Shown piece by piece: positions 13,460 to 34,157 of a stretch of DNA of 64,000 nucleotides; the first letter of the stretch is position 1; each line of letters begins with the position of its first letter. Origin of the DNA: Vicinamibacteria bacterium (lineage in GTDB: Bacteria > Acidobacteriota > Vicinamibacteria > Marinacidobacterales > Marinacidobacteraceae); NCBI GenBank assembly GCA_963555995.3, contig OY821641.1:480001-544000 (forward strand). The letters are read 5' to 3'. The notes below the pieces were generated by a model that saw nothing but the letters and a program-made list of their open reading frames with translations, ran no database searches and had not been told where the DNA came from. A program made the translations under genes and the position numbers.

Positions 13460-14083
13460 TCAATTCCCTGGTGCGCCTGGGTCTGTCAGACGGTTCTGGC
13501 GCCGAAGCTCCATGGCGACGAAAGGGGATTCCCTCACCAGCACGTCGAAACAGATCCGCCCCGTCCAGAAGTCCGCAGCGTGGCTCTCCCGCGTGGTGCG
13601 AAACGCGTAGTCGTTGAGTTTCAATCGGCAGATCGTCGCCTCTACCTGGGCCCGAATCTCCGCCGACAACCGCCTGCCCGGACAAACCTGGAAACCGCTC
13701 AGCTCGATACGAAACCAGCCATCCTCAAGCTCGAAGGGATCGAGGACATCCAGCCAGTTGTTCTTCCGGGAGTTCATACGCGAGGAGGCGAGTCGGAAAT
13801 TGCTCCACTCGTAGATGAGATGCCACTCCCGCGACTTGGGGGCCATGTGATCCACGGAGGCGGCGCCGGTTACAGCATGGATGCGGAAACAGGAATACGC
13901 GCAGATCTCGTTGTATGCCTTCATGAGATCCGGTATGGCCTTTCTCCAAAGACTCGGCAAGCGGTCGACCAGTTCATCGGGAGGCGTCGCCTCGGCCTTC
14001 AACCGCTCGATGGCCCTTTTCCCCGGTTTGCGCACCTTCGTGTCGAAACCCGGAGGCTCGGGTGCCGGCGTAACGGGAATCAT
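13460..14083 (-). CDS. HNH endonuclease (PtuB/retron-effector-like)
   Basis: Starts MIPVTPAPEP at 14083 (ATGA overlap with the ATPase stop); CAYSC...VDHMAPK...WSNFRLASSRMNSRK HNH motif. Confidence 0.85.
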   Translation of the reverse strand: MIPVTPAPEPPGFDTKVRKPGKRAIERLKAEATPPDELVDRLPSLWRKAIPDLMKAYNEICAYSCFRIHAVTGAASVDHMAPKSREWHLIYEWSNFRLASSRMNSRKNNWLDVLDPFELEDGWFRIELSGFQVCPGRRLSAEIRAQVEATICRLKLNDYAFRTTRESHAADFWTGRICFDVLVRESPFVAMELRRQNRLTDPGAPGN

Positions 14084-15327
14084 CGTCCCATCGAATGCCG
14101 ATACTGAGTCCAGCGGACCCAGAAGCGATCCACGTCGCTCAGGGCAGCCCGAAGTGCACCCTCCACCTGATCCAGTTCGTCGCCGGACGCTGTGCCGTCC
14201 CTGCGGAAGAGCGCCAAAGCATCGGTAATCGCGTTCTCCGCCTCGATAGAGCGCGGTTCCGTCAGATCGAACACGGAAGACGTGAGCCAAGCGTTGGCGT
14301 CGCCGTGTCGGCTCCAGGAATGTTCGAGAAGCGTGACGCTTCTTTCTTCGAGTTTCAGTTCCCACACGGCGTCGGAGTCTTTGTCGAACTGCGCTTCGAC
14401 GGACGCCAGAATCAGCGGTGAGTGCGTGGCCGCCACCAGTTGCACCGGAATCCCGGCTTCGCCCGTGAGTGCCTCCATCACGTCCAGCAAAGCCGGCACG
14501 ATCCGACGCTGCCACTCCGGGTGAAGGTGCGCTTCGATCTCGTCGATCAGGAAGATGATCTCACGGGCAGGCGCATCGCCGCGCAATTCTGCGGACGCCA
14601 CATGTTCCTGCCAAGTCCACACCAGCAAATAGGCTAGGGAGACGATGCGGCGAATTCCGGCCGAAGCGTGCACCAGCGGCACTTCCAGCCCGTACGGGGA
14701 CCTAATGGTGGGATGTTTCCGCGCGTCGCTGAGCGATAGCTTGATGAGTTCTCCCGGTTCCAGAGGTTCGGCTGGAGACGGCGAGAGCGCCACGAGGACG
14801 CTTTTTAGCTGCCGCATGGCGTCGCCGTCCTCGAGCTGCCAGTTCGCCCAATCCGCAATCAGCCCGTTGCAGTATTTGGTGGACCCTCCGAGGGGCAGGC
14901 CGTCCCAGACTTCCCGGCCCGAGAACAGGTACGCCGCCTGCCTTTCGCTGTCCTGCTCCTTCCAGTAGTTTCGGGCTGGGTCCCAGACCGAGAAGCCGCC
15001 GTCGACCTGGGCATAAAGCACGAGACCGGGAATCGGCGGGCGGCCCCGCCGCAGCTTCCACTGTTCTTCGCCACGGTCGAAGTTACTCTCGTACTCATGG
15101 GGTTTCGATTTGGCTCCGTAGCGGTAGAGAATTCTCGGAACGGCAGGGGGCCGATGCGGCACGAGCATCGTCCGCGCCCAGGTTCGAGTAAGAGCCCACC
15201 AAGCGGCTTCGAGAAGAAAGGATTTGCCGAGCCCGTTGTCGCCAGTCAGGAAGTTCATCCGACGTCGGAAATCGAGCGTCAAGCGCGGCGCCGGGCCGAC
15301 GCCCTCGAAGCTCAACCGTTCGATCAT
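14080..15327 (-). CDS. ABC/AAA_21-type ATPase (PtuA-like defence ATPase)
   Basis: Walker A GDNGLGKS, signature ASAG, Walker B LIDEIEAHLHPEWQ, ATHSPLI. Confidence 0.9.
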   Translation of the reverse strand: MIERLSFEGVGPAPRLTLDFRRRMNFLTGDNGLGKSFLLEAAWWALTRTWARTMLVPHRPPAVPRILYRYGAKSKPHEYESNFDRGEEQWKLRRGRPPIPGLVLYAQVDGGFSVWDPARNYWKEQDSERQAAYLFSGREVWDGLPLGGSTKYCNGLIADWANWQLEDGDAMRQLKSVLVALSPSPAEPLEPGELIKLSLSDARKHPTIRSPYGLEVPLVHASAGIRRIVSLAYLLVWTWQEHVASAELRGDAPAREIIFLIDEIEAHLHPEWQRRIVPALLDVMEALTGEAGIPVQLVAATHSPLILASVEAQFDKDSDAVWELKLEERSVTLLEHSWSRHGDANAWLTSSVFDLTEPRSIEAENAITDALALFRRDGTASGDELDQVEGALRAALSDVDRFWVRWTQYRHSMGR

Positions 15328-16478: not shown

Positions 16479-18191
16479 ATGCGCGGGAAACGGCGAATTG
16501 CCCTGATCGGGATGGCCCCCCTGCTGGGTCTTCCCCTGCTGCTCGCACCCTCGCTGGACGGGCCCGCCGAAGGCGCCGGGATGAGCGTCAACGGGATGGT
16601 GGTGACCTCCCACCCGCTCGCGGCGCAGGCCGGGCTGCGGATGCTGCAGGCGGGCGGGAACGCGTTCGACGCGGCGGTGGCGAGCGCGGCCGTGAAGGCC
16701 GTCGTGGAACCGCTCATGTCCGGGCTGGGCGGGGTGGGCGGCTACGCGCTGATCCACGACGCCAAAACGGGAGACATCCGTTCGGTGGACTTCATCGGCG
16801 CGGCCCCGGCCGCCGCGGACCCCGAAGCGTTCACCGCCGGCAGCCGGCTCTGGGACCGGACCCATCCGGCCCGCGACAGTTTCCTGGCGCCGCTGGTGCC
16901 CGGCAACCTGGCCGGCTGGGCGGCGCTCCTCGAGGAGTACGGCTCGATGTCCTGGGCGGAAGTGCTGGCGCCCGCCATCGAGTACGCCGAAGACGGTTTC
17001 GCGGTGACCCCCGCGGTCAGCGGGCCGTTCGGGACGAGCGGCTTCGGCGCCGACGTGGCCCGCTACCCCTACGGCGCCGGCATCTTCTTCAAGGGCGGGA
17101 AGCCCTGGCCGGTGGGCGAGGTCCTGAAGCAGCCCGACCTGGCGAAGACCCTCCGGGCCATCGCGGCCGATGGGCCGGGGGTCCTCTACGGCGGGGCGAT
17201 GGCGGAGACGGTCGTGGACTTCTTCCGGCAGAACGGCGGCATCCTCACCGTGGAGGACTTCGCGAACTACCGGGCGCGCTGGAGCGAGCCGCTCTCGACG
17301 ACCTACCGCGGCTACACGGTGTACAGCCAGCCCCCCGGCGGTTCCGGGATGACGATCCTGCAGACCCTGAACATCCTCGAGCAGTTCGACGTGCCGGCGC
17401 TGGAGCACAACTCCGAGGAGTTCGTCCATCTGGTGGCGGAGGCGATGAAGCTGGCGTTCGTGGACGAGGACATCTGGAACACCGGCAAGGACTACGCCGA
17501 CATTCCGCTCGACCGGCTGCTCTCGAAGGAATATGCGGCGCAGCAGGCGGCGCGGATTGATCTTTCCCGGGCGCAGTTCCACGCCGCGGTCCGCGACGGG
17601 AGCGACCTGCCCACCGCGGTGGAGCACACCACGCACCACACGGTGGTGGACAAGGACCACAACGTGGTGACCATCACCCAGACGCTCATGCTCCCGGCGG
17701 GGGTGGTGGTCCCCGAGACCGGGGTCATCTTCAACAACGGGATGTCCTATTTCAGCCTGGACCCCGAGGACGTGAACCTCATCGAGGGCGGGCAGCGGCC
17801 CCGCTTCGTGATGAGCCCCACCATCGTGACCCGCTACGACAAGCCCTACTTCGCCCTCGGATCGGCGGGAGGCTGGACCATCCCGCAGACGATCCTGCAG
17901 GTGCTGGTGCGGGCGCTCGACTACGAGATGGACGCCCCGGCGGCGGTGGACGCGCCGCGTTTCGTGGTCCGCTACCTGGCGAACTCGATTCCCTACATGG
18001 ATGGGACCGATCTGGTGCTGGAGAAGGACTTCCCGGATGAGGTGCGGGAGGCGCTGAACGCCAGGGGGCATCGCCTGCGCGAGCCCCCCAACCGGATCGG
18101 GATGCTGAACGCGATCCGGATCGTTCCGGGCTCGGGAGTGCTTTCCGGGGGGCCGGACAAGCGCCGCGAGGGCGCCGCGGCGGGCTGGTGA
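16479..18191 (+). CDS. ggt: Gamma-glutamyltransferase (Ntn hydrolase)
   Basis: GGNAFDAAVA, SGLGG, HTTH catalytic Thr, TGVIFNNGM and MSPTIV motifs; signal peptide. Confidence 0.92.
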   Translation: MRGKRRIALIGMAPLLGLPLLLAPSLDGPAEGAGMSVNGMVVTSHPLAAQAGLRMLQAGGNAFDAAVASAAVKAVVEPLMSGLGGVGGYALIHDAKTGDIRSVDFIGAAPAAADPEAFTAGSRLWDRTHPARDSFLAPLVPGNLAGWAALLEEYGSMSWAEVLAPAIEYAEDGFAVTPAVSGPFGTSGFGADVARYPYGAGIFFKGGKPWPVGEVLKQPDLAKTLRAIAADGPGVLYGGAMAETVVDFFRQNGGILTVEDFANYRARWSEPLSTTYRGYTVYSQPPGGSGMTILQTLNILEQFDVPALEHNSEEFVHLVAEAMKLAFVDEDIWNTGKDYADIPLDRLLSKEYAAQQAARIDLSRAQFHAAVRDGSDLPTAVEHTTHHTVVDKDHNVVTITQTLMLPAGVVVPETGVIFNNGMSYFSLDPEDVNLIEGGQRPRFVMSPTIVTRYDKPYFALGSAGGWTIPQTILQVLVRALDYEMDAPAAVDAPRFVVRYLANSIPYMDGTDLVLEKDFPDEVREALNARGHRLREPPNRIGMLNAIRIVPGSGVLSGGPDKRREGAAAGW

Positions 18192-19798
18192 CCTGCCTGC
18201 CCCGGCGTTCGTGGCTTCCGTTTCGGGACCCGTCGCCGCTGGAATACACTGGGCTCATGGGGTTCGGGAAAGTCTCTCGCAGCGTTCGGAACCTGCCTGT
18301 CCCGGTGGCATTGGCGCTGGGCTGCGGACTCGTGTCCGTCGCGGGCGGCGGGTGCGCGCTCAGGGCCGCATCCCCCGCCCGGGAGGCGGCTCCCGAGCTA
18401 CCCGCCGACTTCGTCGAGAGCCCGGCAGCTGGCGCCCCTGAGGCGCAGGAGTGGTGGCGGGCGTTCAACGACCCGGCGCTCGACCAGGTGGTCGCATCGG
18501 TACTGGACTCCAACTTCTCCGTGGCGGAAGCGGTCGCGCGCGTCGAGCAGGCCAGAACGCGGGCCCGGCTGGCCGACGCGGCGATCCTCCCCAGTGTCGG
18601 CGCGAGCCTCACCGCGGAAACCTTCGACCTGCCCACGAATGCCGCGATCGGCGCGCAGCTCGAGGACCTGGGCCTCGATTTCCCTCTGCCCGACCGGTTG
18701 GGCTTCCCGACCTATACCCTGGGCGCGGACTTCGCCTACGAAGCCGATTTCTGGGGCCGCGTCCGGCACACCGCCCTCGCGGCGGGATCCGAGCTGCTGG
18801 CCTCGGAGTTCGACCTGCGGGTCGCCCGCATCGGGATCCTCGCCGAGACGATTTCGGTCTACTTCGAGATCGGCCACCTGCGGCAGCAACGCGCCATCGC
18901 CGGGCGGCAGGTGGAACTGCTCGAGGAACGCGAGCGGTTCGTCGCGAGCCGCTACGAACGCGGGCTCACGGCTTCCCTCGAGCTGCACGGCGTCCGCGAG
19001 GCCCTCTCCAGCGCGCGGGCCGGCGTGCCGCAGGTCGAGAACCAGCTCGCCGAGACGGAGTCCCGGCTCGCCGTACTGCTGGGAGGCTACCGGGAGGACG
19101 TCGCGGCGATCCTTCCCGACTCCCGGTCGCCGGAAACCCCGGCCGAACCCGTGCCGGCCGGCATTCCGGCCGACCTCCTTTCGCAGCGGCCGGACGTGCA
19201 GGCCGCAGGTCACCGGCTGGAAGCCGCCGGACACACCGTCGAAGCGCGGCGCGCGGCCCTGATGCCCCAGCTCTCGCTCTCCGGATCCATTGGACTGCGG
19301 AGCACGGACGCCGGAGGCCTTTTCGACGTCAAGCAGTGGTTCACGAACCTTGCCGGCAACCTGCTCCGGCCGGTGTTCGACGGCGGCCGGCTGGCGAGCG
19401 GCGTGGAACTTGCCGAAGCGCGCTTCGATGAGCTGGCGGCAGCCTACGGCCGGACCATCGTTACCGCGGTCAACGAGGTGGAAGCGGCCCTGGCAACCCT
19501 GAGGAACGAAGGCCGCCGGCAGGAATCTCTTGCCGCCCGCCACGAAGAGGCCCGGACGTCCGTGGAAGTGCAGGCCAGACGTTACGAGTCGGGCATCAGC
19601 GGCTATGGCGATCTGCTCGACGCCACCGCCGGACTGCTGGACGCGGAATTGGCGCTTGCGGGTTCGGAGCGGAACCTGGCCCTCGCCCGGCTGGCCATCC
19701 ACCGGGCCCTGGGGGGCGCGTGGGCCGGCCCGGACGCGATGGCCGGCGCTCCGGCGGGCGCACCGGACACCCGTGCGAAAGGACCGGCGGACCGATGA
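18188..19798 (+). CDS. RND efflux outer membrane factor (TolC/OprM/NodT family lipoprotein)
   Basis: WWRAFNDPALDQ, YEADFWGRVR, PAGIPADLLSQRPDV, LHR/IHRALGG motifs; the true start may be ATG 18257. Confidence 0.92.
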   Translation: MTCLPRRSWLPFRDPSPLEYTGLMGFGKVSRSVRNLPVPVALALGCGLVSVAGGGCALRAASPAREAAPELPADFVESPAAGAPEAQEWWRAFNDPALDQVVASVLDSNFSVAEAVARVEQARTRARLADAAILPSVGASLTAETFDLPTNAAIGAQLEDLGLDFPLPDRLGFPTYTLGADFAYEADFWGRVRHTALAAGSELLASEFDLRVARIGILAETISVYFEIGHLRQQRAIAGRQVELLEERERFVASRYERGLTASLELHGVREALSSARAGVPQVENQLAETESRLAVLLGGYREDVAAILPDSRSPETPAEPVPAGIPADLLSQRPDVQAAGHRLEAAGHTVEARRAALMPQLSLSGSIGLRSTDAGGLFDVKQWFTNLAGNLLRPVFDGGRLASGVELAEARFDELAAAYGRTIVTAVNEVEAALATLRNEGRRQESLAARHEEARTSVEVQARRYESGISGYGDLLDATAGLLDAELALAGSERNLALARLAIHRALGGAWAGPDAMAGAPAGAPDTRAKGPADR

Positions 19799-21015
19799 AT
19801 CGAACCAGGGGGTACGTCCTGGCGGCGATCATCCTGCTCGGATCGTTCGGGATCGCCACCCTGCTGATCGCGCAGCGGCCCGAGCCCGAGCGGCGCGAGC
19901 CTCCCTCCCCGATTCCGTTCGTCGTCACCTCCCCGGCGGCGGCGGGTTCCGGGTCGATTCCGGTCCATGGCGCCGGCACGGTCCGGCCACGCGAGCAGGT
20001 GGACGTGGCCGCCGGGGTGAGCGGACGGGTCGTGTGGGTGGATCCGGCTTTCGAGAGCGGCGGGCGGGTCAGCGAGGGCCAGGTGCTTTTCCGCCTCGAC
20101 GACAGCGACTACCGCCACCGGACCGAGCAGGCGCGATCCGGCGTCGCCGGGCAGCAGTTGGAGTTGCTGCGGGTCGAGGAGGAGGCCCGGATCGCCCGCG
20201 AGCAGTACGAAGCGTTCCAGAGCCGCCGCGGCGCCGCCGCCGGAGGTGCGAACGCGAGTCCGCTCGCGCACTGGGAGCCGCAACTCGAGGCGGCGCGGGC
20301 CGGCGTGGAACGGGCCGACGCCCTCCTGGCGGAAGCCGAACTCCTGCTCGCGCGGACGGCGGTGCTGGCGCCCTTCGACGCGGTGGTGCGTTCCGAGACC
20401 GTCGGCGTGGGGCAATTCGTGACCGCCGGAGTGGGGGTGGCGCAGATCTACGCGTCCGATGCGGTCGAGATCGTCGTCCCGCTGTCGGACGCCGAAGCGG
20501 CGCTCGTCCCGGGCCTGTGGGACCTGAGGCCGGGAGTCGCGGACCGCCGGGCGGCGGCCCGGGTCACTGCGGAATACGGCGCCGGCGCCTACGCCTGGGA
20601 GGGATATGTGGACCGGGTCGAGGCCGCGCTGGACGAAACGACGCGGACCCTCGACGTGATCGTGCGGGTTCCGAACCCTTTCGAGGGCGGCTCCCGGGTG
20701 GAAACCGGCGAGGCGGACGCAGACCCCGGATCTTCCGCCGGGTCCCCGCCACCGCTCCTGATCGGCCAGTTCGCGAACGTCGAGATAGCGGGGATCGCGC
20801 CGCAGGAGTACTTCCGGATAAGGCGGCTGGGGCTCCGACCGGGAAACGAGGTCTGGGCGGTGGACGGCGAGGCGGTGACCATCGTTCCGGTGCGCGTGTT
20901 GCAGCGCTTCGACGACACCGTGTACGTCACGGGTGGGTTGCGGGAAGGCCAGGACGTGGTGCTGACCGGGATCCAGTTCGCGACCGAGGGAATGAGGGTG
21001 CGCACGGCGGAGTAG
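19795..21015 (+). CDS. RND efflux periplasmic adaptor (membrane fusion protein)
   Basis: ATGA overlap with the OMF stop; VSGRVVWV, RTAVLAPFDAVV, LDETTRTL and GLREGQDVV MFP motifs. Confidence 0.92.
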   Translation: MNRTRGYVLAAIILLGSFGIATLLIAQRPEPERREPPSPIPFVVTSPAAAGSGSIPVHGAGTVRPREQVDVAAGVSGRVVWVDPAFESGGRVSEGQVLFRLDDSDYRHRTEQARSGVAGQQLELLRVEEEARIAREQYEAFQSRRGAAAGGANASPLAHWEPQLEAARAGVERADALLAEAELLLARTAVLAPFDAVVRSETVGVGQFVTAGVGVAQIYASDAVEIVVPLSDAEAALVPGLWDLRPGVADRRAAARVTAEYGAGAYAWEGYVDRVEAALDETTRTLDVIVRVPNPFEGGSRVETGEADADPGSSAGSPPPLLIGQFANVEIAGIAPQEYFRIRRLGLRPGNEVWAVDGEAVTIVPVRVLQRFDDTVYVTGGLREGQDVVLTGIQFATEGMRVRTAE

Positions 21016-21291: not shown

Positions 21292-22320
21292 ATGAGTGAA
21301 GGCGCGCTCCCCCCGTTCCCGGAGGGTTGGTATTTCGTCGCCACCCGAGCGTCCCTGGAGAAGGCGAAGCTCATCCAGAAGACGTGGATGGGACAGGACA
21401 TCGTTGCCTGGTGCGACGACGCCGGCAGGGTCTCCGTGGCCGAGTCGGTCTGTCCGCACCTCGGGTCCGAACTGGGACCCGTCGCCGGCGGCCGGGTGCG
21501 CGACGGCCGTCTCGTCTGTCCCTTCCACGGCTACGAGTTCGACGCCAGCGGCCAATGCGTCGCCACTCCCTTTGCCCCGCCGCCGAAGACCGCGAAGCTG
21601 AAGTCCTTCGAGACCCGGGAGGTTCTCGGCATCGTCTTCGCCTGGTGGGGCGCCGGTGGACGGCCCCCGCGGTGGCGCCTCCCGGAAGACCCGCCGGCCG
21701 GAGCCGACTGGTGCCGACCGGCGTTCCGGACTCTCCGGTTTCGGGGGCACCCTCAGGAAACGAGCGAGAACGCCGTGGACATGGCGCACCTGCGGTACGT
21801 GCACGGCTACGGCAACGTCGGCCGGGTCGGAAAGGTGACCGTGGACGGCGCGCAGCTCGTGAGTTCCTTTGACTTCAAGCGCACCCAGAGCGTCGTCGGG
21901 ATCGCGAATCTCACTTTCGACGTTTCCGCGACCGCCCACGTCGTCGGGCTCGGGTATTCCTTCGTGGAGTTCCGCGAACGCTCCATTGGCATGGACGGGC
22001 GTCTGTGGGTGCTTGCGACGCCCGTGGACGGCACCCTCATTGACCTGGTGCTGGTCAGCCAGTTTCGGCAACTGCGGAAGCCGAAACGGCCGATCGTCGG
22101 CTTGCGGTTCCTCCCGCTGACGCTTCGCACGCGGGTCATGAACGCGTTGATGCTGACTTTTCAGAAACACGACGTCCTGCAGGACGTGGAGATCTGGAGC
22201 CGGAAACGGTACCGGTCGCGGCCGAGCCTCTCCCGGTCCGACGGTGAGATCGGAATGTACCGGCGCTGGTGCAAGCAGTTCTACGCAGAACCGGGAACAC
22301 CCGAGCTCACGCCGTCCTGA
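21292..22320 (+). CDS. Rieske non-heme iron oxygenase, Neverland/DAF-36 (sterol C7-desaturase)/KshA-like
   Basis: PPFPEGWY start; Rieske CPHLG...CPFHG; Fe-binding ENAVDMAHLRYVH; C-terminal DVEIWSRKRY...DGEIGMYRRWCKQFY. Confidence 0.85.
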   Translation: MSEGALPPFPEGWYFVATRASLEKAKLIQKTWMGQDIVAWCDDAGRVSVAESVCPHLGSELGPVAGGRVRDGRLVCPFHGYEFDASGQCVATPFAPPPKTAKLKSFETREVLGIVFAWWGAGGRPPRWRLPEDPPAGADWCRPAFRTLRFRGHPQETSENAVDMAHLRYVHGYGNVGRVGKVTVDGAQLVSSFDFKRTQSVVGIANLTFDVSATAHVVGLGYSFVEFRERSIGMDGRLWVLATPVDGTLIDLVLVSQFRQLRKPKRPIVGLRFLPLTLRTRVMNALMLTFQKHDVLQDVEIWSRKRYRSRPSLSRSDGEIGMYRRWCKQFYAEPGTPELTPS

Positions 22321-23677
22321 AGCGCCAGCCGTACATCACCCGTCCGTAGAAGTTGAACCACTTCCTGGCCTCGGGGTCGTCGAACGGGTATTCCGCGCCG
22401 AGCTGCCTCGCCGTAACGAGGCCGGACACGAAACAGGTCTCCTGGCTGTTGATCAGGGTGTGCGCGCCGCAGTGCCAGGTCCGCCGCTTTCCCTGGACGA
22501 AGCGAAAGATCTGCGTCAGAAAGGCCACGTGACGCACGTCGTGGACGATGTGCTGAAACCACCACTTGCTGACGATCTTGTTGTCGGCGATCCGACTGAT
22601 CGGGTTGTAGGTCACGAGACACGGCTTGTCCGACTTCTTCGCCCACGGCTGCTGGTTGTGCATGATGTAGGTGATTTCGTAGTTGTCCGGCCGCGCGCCG
22701 TACTGCTGGATGTGGTTGCTCCGGGTGGCGAGGGGCCTGACTTCGCTGTCGGGGAGGACCGAGGCGTCCGAATGGACGACCGTGTGGTTGTGCAGTTCGC
22801 TCTCGTAGCGGACCTGTGAGAGGAGCCAACCCTCCAGCCGGGTCGGCCGGTCGAGGAGCATCAGCGTCTGGTTCGCGTTGCACGCGAAAACGACGTCATC
22901 GAACGTCTCCGCCGTTCCGTTCTCATCTTCCACGACGACGTCGTACCGGCGCCGGTGAACCTTTCGCACCGGCCGGTTCAGGTAGATCCTGTCGCGAAAC
23001 GACGCCGACAGCTCCCGATAGATCCGTCGGGTTCCCTGGTCCCACGTCTGCATCGGCGTCGCGGTCTCGATGTCGAAGAAGTCCAGGTAGCGGGAAAACA
23101 GCGACGCCGGCATGTCGAACACGTTCGTCGCCATCAGGAAGTTGACGAACATGGGTTTCAGGATCTTGTAGCGGAAGTCTCCCGAGTACCGGCCCAGGTT
23201 CAGCAGGGCGCCCATGCTGACGTAGTTGAACGGATTGAGGGCGCCGAGCAGTTTGGACCGGGACAGGTTGAGGCGGCCGAACCATTGAAGGCGCCGCAGC
23301 AGCCGCTGGAACCTCCGGATTTCCGGTTGCAACTGCCTCCGGATGTCGGAGTCGAAGTCGTGGGCATAGATTTCGCCCCGATACTTCACGCTGTAGTTGA
23401 ACCGGGTGGCGACCAGTTCGATCCCGTGCTGCTGCATGAACAGGACGAAGTGGTGGTATGCCGACGGAATGCACGCGGTCACTGAAATGTCGAACGGGAT
23501 CGCGCCGCCGCCGTCCTGGGGCATTTCGGCGGTGATCGCATTGCCGCCGAGCTGGGCCTGCGCTTCGAACAGTCGGAAATCGAAGCGGTCCGGATGCTGG
23601 TTGAGCGCCCACGCCACTCCGAGTCCCGAAACGCCCCCGCCGACGATGGCGATCCGCCGCGGCTTCGCTGCACCCAT
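22307..23677 (-). CDS. FAD-dependent oxidoreductase (COG2907/amine-oxidase-like)
   Basis: Start MGAAKPRRIAIVGGGVSGL (Rossmann GxGxxG); FEAQAQLGGNA, VVHSDASVLP and QGKRRTWHCGA motifs. The longer upstream frame runs through a REPIN and is unlikely to be coding. Confidence 0.88.
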   Translation of the reverse strand: MGAAKPRRIAIVGGGVSGLGVAWALNQHPDRFDFRLFEAQAQLGGNAITAEMPQDGGGAIPFDISVTACIPSAYHHFVLFMQQHGIELVATRFNYSVKYRGEIYAHDFDSDIRRQLQPEIRRFQRLLRRLQWFGRLNLSRSKLLGALNPFNYVSMGALLNLGRYSGDFRYKILKPMFVNFLMATNVFDMPASLFSRYLDFFDIETATPMQTWDQGTRRIYRELSASFRDRIYLNRPVRKVHRRRYDVVVEDENGTAETFDDVVFACNANQTLMLLDRPTRLEGWLLSQVRYESELHNHTVVHSDASVLPDSEVRPLATRSNHIQQYGARPDNYEITYIMHNQQPWAKKSDKPCLVTYNPISRIADNKIVSKWWFQHIVHDVRHVAFLTQIFRFVQGKRRTWHCGAHTLINSQETCFVSGLVTARQLGAEYPFDDPEARKWFNFYGRVMYGWRFRTA

Positions 23678-23782
23678 GTTTTCTACTCTACCGTCGCGGG
23701 CGGCCGCCTCGTCCCCACCGGAAGAAGACCCCCATGATCGGGTCCTCCCGCACACCCCGCCGGTCATGAGAATTGCGGAAAC

Positions 23783-23991
23783 GGCTTGGAGCGCCGGCTT
23801 CAGCCGGCACCCGCTGCGCGGAGCGCAGCGGAACGGCGTACGGCTCCTGCCCGCATGGCGCGTGGGCAGGCGAGGCGGCTCCAAAGAACTGGTGGCCGGC
23901 GTTCCCGGCCTTTGCGCCATCCGGGCGGATGAGGTCCTTCCCGCCGCCCGCCTGCGGCGGGCTGTGCCGGCTGAAGCCGGCGTTCCCAGCC
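23783..23991. repeat. REPIN-like element (variant A)
   Basis: ggcttggagcgccggcttcagccggcac...gtgccggctgaagccggcgttcccagcc; interior is the reverse complement of the 10097 copy. Confidence 0.9.
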
Positions 23992-24181
23992 GTTGGACCC
24001 TCACGGCTGTTGGCGGACCCGCACGGGACTGCATCTTCACAGCAACCGGGCCGGCGGCGCCATCACGGCTCCGAGGTGGACCCCCGAAGTAGCACTTTGG
24101 CGACGACTCGCCGCGCTCGGCGCTCGTGGAGGTTTCCCCGCCGGCTGGTAGAATTCCCGCCGGACAATCCGGAGGGGGCCG

Positions 24182-26245
24182 GTGGGCATGGCCTCAAGCC
24201 GCTCGATCCGGATGTCGAAGACCATGAGCGAGGCCACCCGGTTCCCGATCCGAATCGCCGAGGAGTTGATCCTCCTCATGCTGGACGAGAAGAGCGGCTA
24301 CCTGGAGATGGTTCCGAACTGGGACTTTTCCTGTGTCATGGCCGGGGCCGTGCTCGCCGATCTGGCCCTGGAGCGTCGCATCGAGACCGACCTGGAGCGG
24401 TTGTACCTGGTCGATCCCACACCGACCGGAGACGAGTTGCTCGACCCGACGCTCAAGGACATCGCCGAATCCGATGAAAAATCGGACGCTCAGTTCTGGA
24501 TCGAACGGAACACCCGCCACGCCGACGAAATCGTCGCGACCGCCCTCGACCGCCTGGTGGAGCGGAACATCCTCACCCACGAGCACGGCGGATTCTGGGG
24601 GCTCTCGCGCTCCGTCGCCCGTTCGGGGACTTTCCCGACCCAGGCTGTCGAGACCCGCAGGGAATCCAAGGCGAGGATCCTGAGCGTCATCCTGCACGAC
24701 GAGATCCCGGACCCGCGGGACGCCATCCTGGTCGCCCTGATGCACACCTGCGGCGGCTTCAAGCTGCGGCTGGAGCAAGAAGACTACGAAGAGCGGCTCG
24801 CCCGGATCGAGCTCGTGGCCAGGCTGGACCTCATCGGACGGACGGTCGCGGCCGCCGTGCAGGACAGCACGGCGAAGCCCAAGACCCGTCGCGTGGTTCA
24901 GACCAAGCCCATTCCCAAGCTTGGGTATCTCAACGTACTGCTACAGCGTGATTTCCTCTCGGGCAACATCCCGAAGGCGATGTACGGCATTTACCGAAGA
25001 CACGGGCCGGTCGTCAGAATGCCCTTCAAGATCCGCGGCGCGCCCGTGGTTTCGGTGATGGGTCCCGATGTCAATCACTGGGTCAACCGGCACGGGCGGT
25101 TCTATCTCCGCTCGAAGGACTACATCGAAGGGCTGGAGCACGCGTTTGGCGCGTCCCGGAGCATGCCCGGCATGGATGGCGCGGAACACTATCGAATGCG
25201 CAAGGAACTCCAGTCTGCGTATTCCCGCGCCACGCTGGCGCAGCGGTTGCCGGAACTGATCCACGACTGCCGGAAATCACTGAGTCGTTGGAAGGAAGGA
25301 GATGTCTTCCGCGCCACCGAGAGCTTTCAGAACCACATCAGCAGTCAGATCTCGCATTTCGCGATGGGAGTGGATTGCAGCAGCTATGTGGACGAACTGT
25401 TGACTTTCGAACACCGGGCTCTGGTAACGCAGGTCCAGGGCGCATTGCCGGGTTTCATGCTGTCCACCCCAAGAATGAAACGGTACGGGAAGCGAGTCAG
25501 GGAACTCCAGGAGGCGATCACCGCGGCGCATACCACAGCGCAACGTAAGGGAAAGCCCAGGGATCTGGCCGACGCGATTCTCGATCTCCACAAGAGGGAT
25601 CCGCAGTTCCTTCCCGAAACGGACCTCACGTTTCCCTTCGTGGCGTCCATGGTCGCCAGCATCTATATGGGCAGTGCGTTGGCCTTCGCCATTTACAACA
25701 TGGTTCGAAACCCGGACGTGTACGCGAGGGTCCGGAGCGAAGCCGAGTCGCTCTTCGGCAACGGCCGTGGACTGGGAGGAGATGACTTCAATCACGAGAG
25801 CGTTGATGTCACGGTGCGTCTCTGCATGGAATCCTCGCGCATATACCCGGTGATTCCCTGGCAGTTGAGAACGGTCATGAACGAGTGCATCGTCAGTGGT
25901 TACGAGATACCGCCGAAGACGATGTTGCTGATCTGCCAGACGGCGCCGCACTATGCCGGGGACCTGTACCGGGATCCGTTGAAGTTCGATATAGACCGGT
26001 ACCTGCCGGACCGGGCCGAACATCTGCAACCGGGCGCCTACGCGCCCTACGGCCTCGGTACGCACATGTGCCTCGGCCACCGGTGGGTGGAACTTCAGAT
26101 GGCCGTCAACGTCCTGCTCATCGCGCGCCACCTGGAGCTCGAAGTGGTGCCCGGCAACTACCGGATGGGAATCAATCCGTTCCCGACCCTGGCCCCCAAC
26201 AGGAAACTGAAGTTCCGCGTCGCCCAGATCCCGAATCCCTTGTGA
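24182..26245 (+). CDS. GPP34 (GOLPH3/Vps74-like) domain fused to cytochrome P450
   Basis: N-terminal IAEELILLMLDEKSG...AGAVLADLALERRI...PTGDELLD (GPP34-like); C-terminal P450 with ESSR (ExxR), FDIDRY and the heme motif YGLGTHMCLG. Confidence 0.88.
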   Translation: MGMASSRSIRMSKTMSEATRFPIRIAEELILLMLDEKSGYLEMVPNWDFSCVMAGAVLADLALERRIETDLERLYLVDPTPTGDELLDPTLKDIAESDEKSDAQFWIERNTRHADEIVATALDRLVERNILTHEHGGFWGLSRSVARSGTFPTQAVETRRESKARILSVILHDEIPDPRDAILVALMHTCGGFKLRLEQEDYEERLARIELVARLDLIGRTVAAAVQDSTAKPKTRRVVQTKPIPKLGYLNVLLQRDFLSGNIPKAMYGIYRRHGPVVRMPFKIRGAPVVSVMGPDVNHWVNRHGRFYLRSKDYIEGLEHAFGASRSMPGMDGAEHYRMRKELQSAYSRATLAQRLPELIHDCRKSLSRWKEGDVFRATESFQNHISSQISHFAMGVDCSSYVDELLTFEHRALVTQVQGALPGFMLSTPRMKRYGKRVRELQEAITAAHTTAQRKGKPRDLADAILDLHKRDPQFLPETDLTFPFVASMVASIYMGSALAFAIYNMVRNPDVYARVRSEAESLFGNGRGLGGDDFNHESVDVTVRLCMESSRIYPVIPWQLRTVMNECIVSGYEIPPKTMLLICQTAPHYAGDLYRDPLKFDIDRYLPDRAEHLQPGAYAPYGLGTHMCLGHRWVELQMAVNVLLIARHLELEVVPGNYRMGINPFPTLAPNRKLKFRVAQIPNPL

Positions 26246-26312: not shown

Positions 26313-29300
26313 ATGAGTTCCGATCCAGGCAGCCACGCCGAGCCCGGCGGACCGATCGCCTACATGGCGAGTAACGGCGTCGCTTCCAATCTCCTGATGT
26401 TCAGCATCCTCGCGGTGGGCCTCGTGTCGCTGACCGGCCTCGAGCAGGAAGGGTGGCCCACGGTTCCCTTCAACCAGTTCGAGGTCTCGGTGCCGTTCCC
26501 CGGCGCCACGCCCGAGGAGGTCGAGGAGGCCATCGTCGTCAAGATCGAGGACGAGGTCAGGGGGCTGGCGGACGTGAAGACGGTCCGGTCCATAGCGGCC
26601 CCGGGGATGGCGTCCGTCAGGGTCGAAGTCAACTCGGGTACGGACATGGGCGCCAAGAAGGATGAAATCGAGGCGGCGGTCGGGCGGATCCAGACGTTCC
26701 CGGGCGGGGCCGAACGGCCCCAGATCCGGGAAATGACGAACGCGCAGAGCATGATGCGCCTCGTCCTCTACGGCGACGTTCCCGAGCGCTCGCTGAAGGA
26801 GCTCGCCTACCGGATCGAGGACGATCTCGCCGCGCTTCCGAACGTGTCCCAGGTCGAGATCAGCGGCGTGCGCAACTACGAGATCTCGATCGAAGTGCCG
26901 CTCGAGCGCCTGCGGGCCCTCGGGCTCACGTTGGCCGACATCGCCAACACGGTTCGCCGCGGTTCCCTGGACCTGTCCGCGGGCAGCATTGATACCGACC
27001 GGTCCCAGGTGCGGATTCGGACCCTGGGTCAGAGCCACGACCAGCAGGACTTCGAGGACATCATCATCCTCGGCCGCGCCGACGGCACGGCGGTCCGCCT
27101 GGGCGACATTGCCGAGGTGCGCGACGGCTTTCAGGACTCCGGTCTGATCGTCCGGCACGAGGGCCACCCCGCCGTGTTCGTCGAGGTCTCGCGCGCCGAT
27201 GGCGAGAGGGTGATGGATGTGGCGCGCGCTGTTCGCGACTACGTCACGAGCGAACTGGCCCCCTCGCTCCCGGACGGCGTGGGCATCAGCATCTGGAACG
27301 ACGACTCCTCGGCCTTTGTGGAGCGCGGCGTCCTTCTCCTCAAGAATGGAGCTCTGGGGTTGTTGCTGGTCCTGCTCGCGCTGGGTCTGTTTCTCCAGCT
27401 CCGGCTGGCGTTCTGGGTCGCCGTCGGTCTTGGCGTTTCCGGGATCGGCGCGCTCGCCGCCATGCTGGTGTTCGACATCCCGCTCCATGCGGTGTCGCTC
27501 TTCTCCTTCGTGCTCGCCATCGGCATCGTCGTGGACGATGCGATCGTGGTGTCCGAGCACATCCACCTGGAACGAAAGCGCGGCACGCCGGGGGTCGTTG
27601 CGGCGATCCGGGGGGCGCGGCGCATCAGGGTGCCGCTGATCTTCGCGGTGCTGACGACGATGGTGGCGTTCCTTCCACTGCTCTTCATACCTGCGGGGTT
27701 CGGCGAGGTCTGGAAGGCGCTGCCGATCATCGTCATCGCCATGCTGCTGATTTCGCTGGTCGAATCGCTGCTGGTGCTGCCGAACCATCTGTCCCATCAT
27801 CTGCATGGCCCGGACTGGGCGCCCCGGACGGGCGTGGAACGATTCGTCGCGCGGATCCAGAATCGTGTCGATTCCCTGTTGAACCGCTTCATCCAGGGAC
27901 CCCTGGACCGCGGGATCCAGTTCGCGGCGGACTGGCCCGGAGTGACGGTTTCGGGGGCCGTCGCGCTGCTTGTCCTGAGCATTTCCCTCCTGCCGGCCGG
28001 CATCGTCCCCGCCACCTTCGCCACGGAAGTCGAAGGTGACTTCGCCATCGCCACCCTCGAAATGCCGGACGGAACGACCGCGCCGCAGACGTACGCCGTG
28101 GCGGAGCAACTCGAAGCGGCCGGCCGCCGGGCGGTGGAGCGGCTTTCCGAGGAACGACCGGCCGATGCGCCTCCGCTACTTTCCGGGGTTACCGTCGTCA
28201 TCGGCCAGCGGTCGCGCGTCGAGACTGGGGGTCTCAACCCCTCGCCCACCCTGAACCCGGAGGCCAACGTCGCGACCATCGAGTTCAAGCTCCTGAGCGC
28301 GCAGCAGCGGCGCATCACTTCGGGAGAGGTCGTGCAGGCATGGCGCGAGGAGGCGGGCGAACTGCCTCAGGCGCGCGCGGTCACCTACATCAGCCAGATC
28401 TACACGCTGGGCAACCCGGTCGAGGCGGCGCTGTCCCACCCGGATCCGGAGCGCCTCAACGAGATCGCGAACTCCACCGTCGCCGGGCTCGGCGGAGTCG
28501 GGGGCGTCTTCGACATCCGCTCGGACCACACGCCCGGGGTGCCGGAAATCCAGGTGGGAATGCTCCCCGAAGCGCGCACGCTCGGTCTCACGCTGGACGA
28601 TCTGGCCCGGCAGACGCGAGCCGCCTTCTTCGGCGCCGAGGCCGTCCGGGTACAGCGAGGACGCGACGAGGTTCGGGTTTACGTGCGGCTACCCGAGGAG
28701 CAGCGCGACTCGATTACCGATATCGAGGGCTACCGGCTCTCGACGCCCGCCGGCGCCGACGTGCCGGTCAGCCGTGTGGCCGCGCTGCGTTCCGGCACCT
28801 CCCCACCGGCCATCCGGCGCCAGGACGGCCAGCGCGTCGTCACGGTGAGCGCCGATGTGGATCCCGGGGTGGTTTCCGCCGGGACCGCCAACGACATTCT
28901 GGAGAACACCATCCTGGCGGGACTCGTCGCCCAGAACCCGGAACTCACGTACACGTTCGGAGGGGAGCAGCAGCAGCAGCTCGACTCCCTGGGCGGTCTC
29001 TATCGCGGATTCGCGATCGCGCTGCTCCTGATCTTCGCGCTGCTGGCCATTCCCCTGCGCTCCTACACCAAGCCGTTCATCGTCATGGCCATCATCCCGT
29101 TCGGGTTTGTCGGCGTGATCCTGGGTCACTGGATGCTGGGGGTCGCCGTCAGCGCGGAGTCCTTCGTCGGGATCTTCGGGCTCGCCGGGGTGGTCGTCAA
29201 CGATTCCCTGGTGATGATTGATTTCACCGACCGGAAGCTCCGCGATGGAGTCCCCGTGCGAACGGCGATCATCGAGGGCGCGAAGGGACGCTTCCGTCCG

Positions 29301-29501
29301 ATCATGCTGACTTCCCTGACGACCTTCCTGGGCTTCACCCCCCTGATTCTCGAGGACGCGATTCAGGCGCAGTTCTTCGTTCCCTTCTCCGCCTCGATCG
29401 GCTGCGGCATCCTTTTCACCACGGCGCTCATCATGTTCCTGGTGCCCGCGCTCTCCTCGATCCACCTGCGGCTGACTTCGGCGCAGGGCCGCGCGGGTTA
29501 G
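26313..29501 (+). CDS. RND efflux permease (AcrB/AcrD/AcrF family)
   Basis: 1062 aa; FPGATPEEVE, GIVVDDAIVVSE (TM4), GVVVNDSLV and RFRPIMLTSLTT motifs. Confidence 0.95.
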   Translation: MSSDPGSHAEPGGPIAYMASNGVASNLLMFSILAVGLVSLTGLEQEGWPTVPFNQFEVSVPFPGATPEEVEEAIVVKIEDEVRGLADVKTVRSIAAPGMASVRVEVNSGTDMGAKKDEIEAAVGRIQTFPGGAERPQIREMTNAQSMMRLVLYGDVPERSLKELAYRIEDDLAALPNVSQVEISGVRNYEISIEVPLERLRALGLTLADIANTVRRGSLDLSAGSIDTDRSQVRIRTLGQSHDQQDFEDIIILGRADGTAVRLGDIAEVRDGFQDSGLIVRHEGHPAVFVEVSRADGERVMDVARAVRDYVTSELAPSLPDGVGISIWNDDSSAFVERGVLLLKNGALGLLLVLLALGLFLQLRLAFWVAVGLGVSGIGALAAMLVFDIPLHAVSLFSFVLAIGIVVDDAIVVSEHIHLERKRGTPGVVAAIRGARRIRVPLIFAVLTTMVAFLPLLFIPAGFGEVWKALPIIVIAMLLISLVESLLVLPNHLSHHLHGPDWAPRTGVERFVARIQNRVDSLLNRFIQGPLDRGIQFAADWPGVTVSGAVALLVLSISLLPAGIVPATFATEVEGDFAIATLEMPDGTTAPQTYAVAEQLEAAGRRAVERLSEERPADAPPLLSGVTVVIGQRSRVETGGLNPSPTLNPEANVATIEFKLLSAQQRRITSGEVVQAWREEAGELPQARAVTYISQIYTLGNPVEAALSHPDPERLNEIANSTVAGLGGVGGVFDIRSDHTPGVPEIQVGMLPEARTLGLTLDDLARQTRAAFFGAEAVRVQRGRDEVRVYVRLPEEQRDSITDIEGYRLSTPAGADVPVSRVAALRSGTSPPAIRRQDGQRVVTVSADVDPGVVSAGTANDILENTILAGLVAQNPELTYTFGGEQQQQLDSLGGLYRGFAIALLLIFALLAIPLRSYTKPFIVMAIIPFGFVGVILGHWMLGVAVSAESFVGIFGLAGVVVNDSLVMIDFTDRKLRDGVPVRTAIIEGAKGRFRPIMLTSLTTFLGFTPLILEDAIQAQFFVPFSASIGCGILFTTALIMFLVPALSSIHLRLTSAQGRAG

Positions 29502-30556
29502 TCCTGATCGGCAGGCCGGCGCGCCACGAAACAGTAGAGCGGCGTGAAGATCCCCGTCCTGCCCCCCGCGACGTAGGCGTTCGCGGTCCGGTCCAGGAGC
29601 GCGACCACCTCCGCCGAACCCTTCGGGAACATGCCGAGGAACTCGGCGATCCGGATCCCCCACCGCAGCGCCTTGCGGCCCAGCGGAATCCGGCGGAAAG
29701 CGCTGCCGGGCAGCCCGCGCTGCGTTTCCATGGGCTGATACCACGGCGTCTCCGCACTGCCCTCGTGGACGGCGAGGTCCGTACCCTCCACGACTTCGAA
29801 TCCCGCGGTTTCGAGCGCCCGGTTCACCTCCCCGAACGTTGCGATGTCCTTGAGCGCGATGCCGTGCCTGAGCTCCCGTTCGATGGCGCGGTGCCGGCCG
29901 TTCCCGGGGTCGTACAGCTCCGTCATGCACATTTCCTGACCCCAGAGGAGGGCTCCGGGTTTCAGGACCCGGTAGATCTCGGCGAACGCGCCCGCCTTGT
30001 CGGCCGCGTGGCAGGTTGATTCGATCGCGTAGCCGCGGTCGAAGGTCCGGCCCGCGATCTCGCCCATGTCCATGAAGCTGCACCGGAGCAGATCGGTCCG
30101 GGCATCGAGCCCCGCGGCGGCGTTCAGCCGCCTGGCCTTGTTGCACTGGACCTCACTGGCGTTGATCCCGACAACCCGGACTCCGGCCTCCCGGGCGACG
30201 CGGCGCATCGGACCGCCGATCCCGCAGCCGACATCAACCACCGTCATCCCCGGCCGCAGTTCGAGCTTGGAGATCATGAGTCGCTGGTGCCGGATCTTGG
30301 AGTCCTCCAGACTCTCGCCGGGCGACAGCGGCGCGAAGTGCAGGGATTCTCCCCAACCCCAGACCATGAACGCGGTACAGAGGTCGTAGTACTCCTGGAC
30401 CGTCCGTGCGTGGTCGTACCCCTCGTCGGCGCCATCCTCCCGGGATGCCCTGCCGGTCCATCCTTCGAGGTCCCGTACCCGGCTCGGGACGTCCGATCCT
30501 GCGAACGCGGTCTTGAGCCCATCGGACAGTTCACGAATGTCCCGCGTGAGCTTCAT
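29498..30556 (-). CDS. Sterol 24-C-methyltransferase-like (ERG6/SMT family) SAM-dependent methyltransferase
   Basis: YYD....WGWGESLHFA (SMT region I), VDVGCGIGGP (SAM-binding), YAIESTCHA (region III), RVLKPG, and a Sterol_MT_C-like tail PWYQP...FRRIPLGR...PKGSAEV...GGRTGIFTPLYCFVARRP. Confidence 0.88.
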   Translation of the reverse strand: MKLTRDIRELSDGLKTAFAGSDVPSRVRDLEGWTGRASREDGADEGYDHARTVQEYYDLCTAFMVWGWGESLHFAPLSPGESLEDSKIRHQRLMISKLELRPGMTVVDVGCGIGGPMRRVAREAGVRVVGINASEVQCNKARRLNAAAGLDARTDLLRCSFMDMGEIAGRTFDRGYAIESTCHAADKAGAFAEIYRVLKPGALLWGQEMCMTELYDPGNGRHRAIERELRHGIALKDIATFGEVNRALETAGFEVVEGTDLAVHEGSAETPWYQPMETQRGLPGSAFRRIPLGRKALRWGIRIAEFLGMFPKGSAEVVALLDRTANAYVAGGRTGIFTPLYCFVARRPADQD

Positions 30557-33374: not shown

Positions 33375-34157
33375 CTATCCCGGTTCTTCGCGGAGCGTCA
33401 GCGTCAGGGTCGCGAACGGCGCCTCCCGAACCGAAGCGGGAAGTTCCCGGATGGGGCCGATCGGCTCGTGGGGGGTCACGTCGGCGTCCGGGGCGGTGAA
33501 TGTCACCCCGCTGTCGGTTCCCGCGTCGTAGCCGACCAGATCCATCTCGATCCGTTCCTTCCAGCAACCGTCTTCCATCAGGGGCATCCCGCTAACCCCG
33601 ACGAACCAGTCGGGGCTGGGCGCGATCATCGAGACCAGGGTCACGAGCGGGTGTTCGTCCGCCGCCTCGAAAGACAGCCCGGCCGATCCCGGCGACGGGA
33701 AGGAAGGCTCCGCGCCTCGCACGCAGGTGGTGCTCCCGCCGCGATCCGCTTCCTCGGCGATTTCCCGGCAGAGCGAGGACACGCTGCCGGTCTCGGCCAT
33801 GCTCTCGATGCCCGGAGTGGCAGTGCCGCCGGAACTCCAGAACGAGACCTCGGGCGCATGGGCGGCCCCCACGACCCGCGAGAAGTGCGGGTTGGACGGG
33901 AAGGGCGGCCGGCTGCCGTGCGAGGACGCATTCCAGACCGCCCGGAAGGTCACCGCGTAGGTCGCTGCATCGGGGCACTCGGGTTCCGGCATCGGCTCCG
34001 GAGGCGGCGGAGCCGGCGCCGGGGGTGCGGGCGCCGGAGCCGGCGCCGGCGTGGAGGGTGCATCGGACCCGCAGGCGAGCGCGAACAAGGCGAGAACGAG
34101 GCAGGCCAATATCCCGCGGAGCGGGGTGCTGGTTGTTGCTTGAGGGGGTACGAACAT
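33375..34157 (-). CDS. Spondin_N domain lipoprotein
   Basis: Lipobox LALAC; Pro-rich linker; YAVTFRAVW, HFSRVVGAAH, SMIAPSPDWFVG and YDAGTDSG spondin/mindin motifs. Confidence 0.9.
   Translation of the reverse strand: MFVPPQATTSTPLRGILACLVLALFALACGSDAPSTPAPAPAPAPPAPAPPPPEPMPEPECPDAATYAVTFRAVWNASSHGSRPPFPSNPHFSRVVGAAHAPEVSFWSSGGTATPGIESMAETGSVSSLCREIAEEADRGGSTTCVRGAEPSFPSPGSAGLSFEAADEHPLVTLVSMIAPSPDWFVGVSGMPLMEDGCWKERIEMDLVGYDAGTDSGVTFTAPDADVTPHEPIGPIRELPASVREAPFATLTLTLREEPG

Follow-up and report, generated by a model that had tools for sequence, protein, structure and literature searches.

The window, as we call the whole 64,000-nucleotide stretch of Vicinamibacteria DNA that was analysed, encodes a protein in which a GPP34 domain is fused to a cytochrome P450 with an altered I-helix. 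With a probability of roughly 0.55 we regard this fusion as a putative sterol-tailoring and export enzyme with non-canonical oxygen activation and not as a PI4P effector. The P450 probably carries out the oxidation within a mobile cassette, which likely modifies sterol-like lipids from the host or the community and then likely exports the product. The features on which this reading is based are given below; counts of 90 refer to a set consisting of the query and 89 fused proteins from 88 loci, with identities down to 39-40%.

18188..19798, + strand: outer-membrane efflux factor of the cassette (Pfam)
19798..21015, + strand: RND periplasmic adaptor of the cassette (Pfam)
21292..22320, + strand: Rieske oxygenase with a KshA_C domain; its closest solved structures are the steroid 9-alpha-hydroxylases KshA
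22307..23677, - strand: FAD-dependent oxidoreductase; its sole paralogue in the genome adjoins a cyclopropane-synthase-like gene
24224..26245, + strand: GPP34-P450 fusion gene; the frame is open from GTG 24182, and the probable ATG gives 673 aa
24254..24865, + strand: GPP34 domain (Pfam) with the GOLPH3/Vps74 fold; PI4P pocket residues not conserved
24935..26164, + strand: cytochrome P450 domain (Pfam and model); heme-binding residues intact
25637..25687, + strand: central I-helix (residues 486-502), one residue shorter than in relatives; Tyr495 and Gly497 at the acid-alcohol site
25664-25666, + strand: codon of Tyr495, invariant in 90 of 90
25829..25840, + strand: ExxR motif (E550 and R553; residues 550-553), invariant in 90 of 90
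26069..26071, + strand: heme-ligand Cys630, invariant in 90 of 90
26313..29501, + strand: AcrB-type RND permease, directly downstream of the fusion
29498..30556, - strand: sterol C24-methyltransferase homologue (SMT) with Methyltransf_11 and Sterol_MT_C domains, the only one in the genome

Positions 24182-26245 (+) form a single open frame of 687 codons. The ATG at 24224 is probably the true start, since most homologues are 671-675 aa long and a GGAGG ribosome site lies just 5' of the matching ATG in relatives. In agreement with the original prediction, Pfam places both domains on the same polypeptide, GPP34 (PF05719) at residues 25-228 (E 3e-33, profile positions 1-200 of 201) and p450 (PF00067) at residues 252-661 (E 3e-33). 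A homologue search found 712 proteins at E<=0.001 among 7999 scored, with at least 120 listed, and both domains are present in 120 of 120 homologues among the matches listed (68-91% identity). The junction of the two domains is spanned by contigs from the sequencing runs X1 and X3 (both from a single study and perhaps from the source sample), X6 (a second study, a relative) and X23 (a third study, about 90% alike). The related contig from X23, an RNA run, covers the fusion gene and the start of the divergent FAD gene; since it extends over both and is a contig, it is no proof of transcription. The window gene is a member of GPP34_L, the group combining GPP34 with a cytochrome P450, so that its architecture was already published in 2025; the main text of that study counts 656 such proteins, found only in sponge symbionts (Ferreira et al., Microbiome 2025;13:4; PMC11706023). 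The unequal GC content of the two halves might point to an artefact of assembly or gene calling, but the fused homologues, these published proteins and the contigs bridging the junction leave that explanation with next to no probability.

The P450 half had also been described as less GC-rich. This is correct (60.0% with GC3 0.78; the GPP34 half has 65.4% with GC3 0.89, and the window as a whole 69.8%) but uninformative, because the same split occurs in four of four relatives tested. As dS is similar in both halves and this pattern is likewise common to the four relatives, the fusion is old and the low GC does not indicate a recent join, which rules out that the P450 half was acquired recently. 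The dN/dS ratio is 0.13-0.20 in the GPP34 and P450 domains alike, and both are under purifying selection.

The protein belongs to the P450 superfamily by its fold, its Cys ligand, the ExxR motif and the heme-propionate residues, which are invariant in 89-90 of the 90 sequences. Besides Cys630 and ExxR, whose integrity had been read correctly from the letters, Arg563, His628 and Arg340 are found in 90 of 90 and His336 in 89. The AlphaFold model, which had been proposed as a check, shows a normal P450 fold (pLDDT 82, pTM 0.78) with an I-helix that is unbroken over residues 469-495 of the 673-aa protein. The unusual feature is the length and composition of this helix. From the start of the I-helix to the Pro of the J-helix the segment measures 33 residues in all 90 members of the query's group and 34 residues in 80 of 81 relatives, which were picked for having a D/E/H-T pair. 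In the sequence alignment the gap scores best at the Asp or at the Thr position of the pair, two adjacent placements that tie, so one of the two residues is deleted and a Tyr stands at the other; the position of this Tyr at the relay site rests on an alignment with two tied gap placements. Tyr495 and Gly497 are present in every I-helix of the 90-sequence set. At its acid-alcohol site the query has no Thr, Ser, Asp or Glu, and the query group lacks the canonical A/G-G-x-D/E-T helix. The absence of the acid-alcohol pair, noticed in the first inspection, is thus explained by a one-residue deletion combined with an invariant Tyr.

The distribution of this helix type was analysed with representatives at 50% identity. 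Of 150 proteins found, the 118 whose P450 stretch reached 330 residues or more were used. Thr is retained at the usual place in 32 of the 43 GPP34-fused proteins and in 65 of the 75 that are not GPP34-fused, which rules out loss of Thr as a general trait of GPP34-P450 fusions. A midpoint-rooted FastTree phylogeny of 131 P450 domains, calculated with the I-helix columns left out and with SH-like support only, joins the deletion type in one long-branch clade (support 1.0, stem 0.5). This clade is nested within a clade of mostly GPP34-fused canonical enzymes (support 0.998), so the odd helix is derived in one branch and is not a property of the fusion as such. Members with Ala-Gly before the gap mostly branch at the base of the deletion clade. 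In a separate group of related P450s (P0223, P0227 and P0245, of which two are GPP34-fused) the Thr is replaced by Gln, with no residue deleted.

The structural comparison identified CYP51, CYP46A1 and CYP184A1 as top matches, tied within 1 Z unit (Z 32-33) at 16-18% identity. In Foldseek the oleate-bound CYP184A1 ranks first, and the best solved match of the family profile is a bacterial CYP51 (E 4e-26). P450s are by convention assigned to the same family above about 40% identity. Because of the low identity and the tie with the fatty-acid enzyme CYP184A1, the matches to CYP51 and CYP46A1 do not name a substrate. The AGHHT motif of CYP51 aligns to ASIYL of the query and the His-Thr pair is absent; together with the 16-18% identity in the structure alignments this rules out orthology to CYP51.

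P450s that lack the acid-alcohol pair include CYP74, CYP8A1, CYP7A1 and EryF. The heme loop of CYP74 carries an insertion, whereas that of the query has normal length. Atypical chemistry of the putative enzyme is plausible. In place of the lost Asp-Thr pair, protons would be relayed by the hydroxyl of the Tyr, either by itself or together with a hydroxyl of the substrate; alternatively, the Tyr might steer the heme to peroxide-type chemistry. The loss of both proton-relay residues in 90 of 90 sequences, the unbroken I-helix of the model and the position of the fusion next to the permease, seen both in the window and at numerous loci, could also be explained by a P450 that is no longer an oxygenase: the short helix and the Tyr would close the distal pocket, and the protein would feed the pump as a heme-containing lipid carrier or sensor. 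We consider this improbable, as the heme-binding residues are invariant down to 40% identity, the Tyr is invariant too, and the CYP152 peroxygenases, according to the available text of PMC5818669, catalyse their reaction without the pair. These enzymes resemble the query in the loss of the Asp/Glu-Thr relay and the retention of the Cys ligand; in place of the pair they have Arg-Pro, which the query does not contain; in the query one position of the pair has been deleted and a Tyr occupies the second.

The N-terminal domain was assigned to GPP34 already in the original prediction, and the isolated domain model (pLDDT 88) agrees with the Pfam match. Among 48,161 chains Vps74 and GOLPH3 are its sole fold matches (Z 16.5 and 16.4; the next Z is 3.8), with an rmsd of 3.0-3.2 over 193-198 residues. 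The bacterial domain has the fold, the beta-hairpin and the aromatic pair at the hairpin tip in common with GOLPH3/Vps74 (PDB 3KN1 and 2ZIH), whose PI4P pocket consists, in the available text of PMC2806290, of W81, R90, R171 and R174. A profile alignment to 9QPQ/3KN1 maps these residues to Val44, Ala54, Asp115 and Val118. The W81 site is occupied by Val, Ile, Ala or Leu across the sequences, and Lys or Arg was found at the sites of R90, R171 and R174 in none of 90 and none of 121 sequences. Unlike GOLPH3/Vps74, the bacterial domain also lacks the 10-residue loop 161-170, is acidic (net charge of the first 214 residues -16) and is fused to an enzyme. Conservation does extend to a Trp that follows the W81 site by three residues and to the aromatic pair of the hairpin; the domain may thus have kept a hydrophobic contact, and its hydrophobic hairpin may reach the membrane. 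Anchoring of the P450 to membranes by GPP34, as first suggested, is not supported in the PI4P-dependent manner of GOLPH3, because the three Arg and the Trp of the pocket are not conserved. The GPP34 domain would touch the membrane by its hairpin or hold partner enzymes without reading PI4P. A prediction of the complex of GPP34 domain, P450 domain and heme, run without controls, returned a score of 0.00 and a mark of 0.32 and is counted on neither side of the argument. Two cysteines are near-invariant in bacterial GPP34, C37 (24332-24334) and C176 (24749-24751) in the 673-aa numbering.

These results bear on the proposal, put forward as a proposal only in the text of PMC11706023, that GPP34_L is a secreted effector which binds host PI4P and blocks phagosome maturation. 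The retained GOLPH3/Vps74 fold is compatible with it, and the long form is described there as restricted to sponge symbionts and expressed in situ. The pocket, with no basic residue at the three Arg sites, an aliphatic residue for W81 and the loop missing, speaks against such a role, as does the strongly negative net charge of the domain. In addition, neither a signal nor a transmembrane segment is present in the fusion protein, the 93% complete genome yielded no marker of type III/flagellar, type IV or type VI secretion when one family was tested for each, and the neighbours are enzymes and pumps. For the window protein we regard this role as very unlikely. In our preferred reading, that of a lipid-modifying enzyme, the absence of a signal or transmembrane segment suggests an intracellular site of action at the inner membrane.

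To evaluate the gene context, 88 loci were fetched; the 83 with a whole fusion were merged at 90% identity to 59 groups, and genes within about 7-8 kb were treated as neighbours. A Rieske protein recurs in 39 groups, an SMT in 27, an AcrB-type RND permease in 22, the FAD enzyme in 21 and an MMPL transporter in 15, or in 21 when the clustering is looser. Of the 59 groups, 49 contain one or more of Rieske, SMT and MMPL, and this neighbourhood backs the earlier guess of a sterol or lipid substrate; the other 10 groups, several of them on short contigs, have none of these three steroid-type neighbours. The outer flanking genes of the window, which served as controls, recur in 2-4 of the 59 groups. 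In the 45 groups that are less than 50% identical to the query the counts are 29 for Rieske, 21 for SMT, 15 for MMPL and 0 for the controls. The pump appears to be interchangeable: the 37 groups with a pump have either RND or MMPL and never both. Sterol-sensing and Patched domains were identified in MMPL, which is the pump in both Dehalococcoidia records. By record title the loci come from Acidobacteriota, Gammaproteobacteria, Dehalococcoidia and Ca. Palauibacter. Between loci the genes differ in order and strand, which together with the record titles in four phyla suggests horizontal spread of the cassette.

Three loci with canonical-type fusions (L106, L111 and L112, from two independent lineages) contain only a distant RND or an unrelated Rieske, and no SMT, FAD enzyme, MMPL or KshA-type Rieske; as there are only three, specificity of the cassette to the deletion clade is not claimed. 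Selected ORFs scanned at five loci of stand-alone relatives or short GPP34 genes revealed no steroid-type neighbours. No ferredoxin or reductase is found among the annotated recurring neighbour families, and six Fer2-domain matches lie elsewhere in the genome. A KshA-type Rieske needs a redox partner as well, so the missing recurring partner does not prove redox independence of the P450. Short stand-alone GPP34 genes were observed directly upstream of a cNMP-binding, NTE-like patatin phospholipase (L114:7822-10826 and L115); these two loci belong to same-genus genomes and provide a further lipid-enzyme context for GPP34.

In the window itself the SMT matches Sterol_MT_C with E 9e-17, and the best solved matches of the Rieske protein are KshA (E 7e-27); its look-alikes in the Atlas include clusters auto-named cholesterol 7-desaturase, a lead only. 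Across 61 related genomes a Sterol_MT_C gene is present in 14, and all 14, which are kin and not independent, also have a long GPP34 frame; in 11 of the 14 the SMT lies within about 7 kb of this frame on one contig. Four same-family genomes have a long GPP34 frame without SMT. Of 27 same-family genomes 20 contain GPP34, and among 33 others it exceeds the cut-off in 1. A relative comes from a run labelled sponge metagenome. Ten symbiont SMTs have been assayed, of which eight methylated desmosterol (available text of PMC10070321). One of the ten, which may or may not be among the active eight, is located on contig LXNJ01000389; this is our locus L076, where the fusion lies together with Rieske, FAD enzyme, MMPL and SMT. 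The L076 SMT is 37% identical to the SMT of the window. No squalene or oxidosqualene cyclase was found in the 93% complete genome, which suggests that the substrate comes from outside. Export would then serve detoxification or supply to the host. A lone gene of the ERG4/ERG24 sterol-reductase family (G000:C1:2816410-2817468, E 2e-37) lies 2.3 Mb from the cassette.

Some of the evidence points to another class of lipid. The only paralogue of the FAD gene in the genome (27% identity) sits with CMAS and DUF1295 genes, a fatty-acyl-modifying cluster type, and the FAD family of the cassette is, as we assume, UfaD-like. In window-type SMTs the first conserved motif deviates from that of the canonical type, and these enzymes may take another substrate. 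The cassette could accordingly modify and export a non-sterol lipid, an unsaturated fatty acyl or another isoprenoid, by methylation, desaturation and oxygenation, with the P450 as the oxygenating or rearranging step; the top rank of oleate-bound CYP184A1 would fit. A like sequence of reactions is followed by UfaM, UfaD and UfaO, which make furan fatty acids by methylate-desaturate-oxygenate logic (available text of PMC7380195). Against this stand the Sterol_MT_C domain of the methyltransferase, the KshA type of the Rieske protein, the sterol-sensing domain of MMPL and the restriction of the FAD gene to 21 of the 59 groups. We therefore judge a non-sterol substrate to be unlikely, and less probable than modification of sterol-like lipids.

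With regard to published systems, the architecture of the window gene and its spread across symbiont phyla are the same as described for GPP34_L, but PMC11706023 takes the long form as one group, whereas here canonical AGLDT-type enzymes are distinguished from a derived deletion/Tyr clade in a steroid-type cassette. Two genomes in which GPP34 is joined to a Rieske domain, and short GPP34 genes that neighbour P450s, are described in that study as well. The word 'sterol' is absent from its main text, and its spreadsheet supplement contains no mention of sterol, I-helix, MMPL or efflux; the flanking-gene figure in PDF form lies outside this statement. De novo steroid gene clusters (CSGs) consist of ERG24, CYP51 and OSC (available text of PMC9531527). 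CSGs and SMTs of sponge symbionts resemble the cassette in being steroid-type gene sets with SMT homologues from the same hosts and phyla, shared horizontally as the cassette probably is (PMC9531527, PMC10070321). Unlike the CSGs, the cassette has none of ERG24, CYP51 and cyclase; it combines a pump and a KshA-type Rieske with a P450 that has 16-18% identity to CYP51. In the accessible literature, which leaves out most subscription journals, no paper on the I-helix deletion or the cassette was found; the deletion/Tyr clade, the lost PI4P pocket and the steroid-type cassette with interchangeable pumps were not found in print.

GPP34_L is among the commonest symbiont-specific genes of sponge microbiomes, and its sole published model is phagosome evasion via PI4P (main text of PMC11706023). 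The missing pocket and the gene context shift the question to lipid chemistry, with a soluble enzyme and a cassette of six to seven genes. The origin of unusual sponge sterols bears on natural-product origins and on sterane biomarkers (available text of PMC10070321). If catalytically active, a P450 that has lost an I-helix residue and carries Tyr in the relay position would be of interest to P450 enzymologists, and close fused relatives keeping AGLDT offer a built-in control within the family. A more far-reaching version, which we put forward tentatively and hold to be rather doubtful as a whole, is that the collapse of the acid-alcohol pair to a single Tyr by the I-helix deletion represents an undescribed activation of O2 or peroxide. 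Together with the KshA-type Rieske, the SMT and an interchangeable pump it would form a cross-phylum cassette with which non-sterol-making bacteria remodel host sterols and export them again. Some unusual sponge sterols would in that case be of bacterial origin, and bacterial GPP34 would serve lipid oxygenases as a targeting module that is independent of PI4P.

Several minor observations were made on the fusion genes and on the window. Tandem paralogous fusions occur at L010:7998-13639, L020:7001-12640, L055 and L079, with a second copy that is 73-75% identical in one example; the copies differ in I-helix and substrate-strand residues, hinting at different substrates or steps. Degenerate second copies were found at L101:9559-11427, L019:1818-2864 and L105:8608-10896, beside second copies of cassette genes, and are damaged by internal deletions, truncation by an IS or a frameshift. 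Between the divergent FAD and fusion genes of the window a repeat of about 200-340 bases is located at 23713-24068. It has 716 blastn matches in the genome, and 19 of the best 24 non-self matches are at least 200 bases long and 71-91% alike. As close relatives have only about 200 bases at this site, the repeat looks like a MITE/REP-like insertion. A Spondin_N lipoprotein-like gene with a eukaryote-like domain lies at 33375-34157 (-; E 1e-42). At 13460-15327 (-) an AAA_21 ATPase, assigned by Pfam, is followed by an ORF for a probable HNH-like nuclease, recognised by eye, a pair resembling a two-gene defence system.
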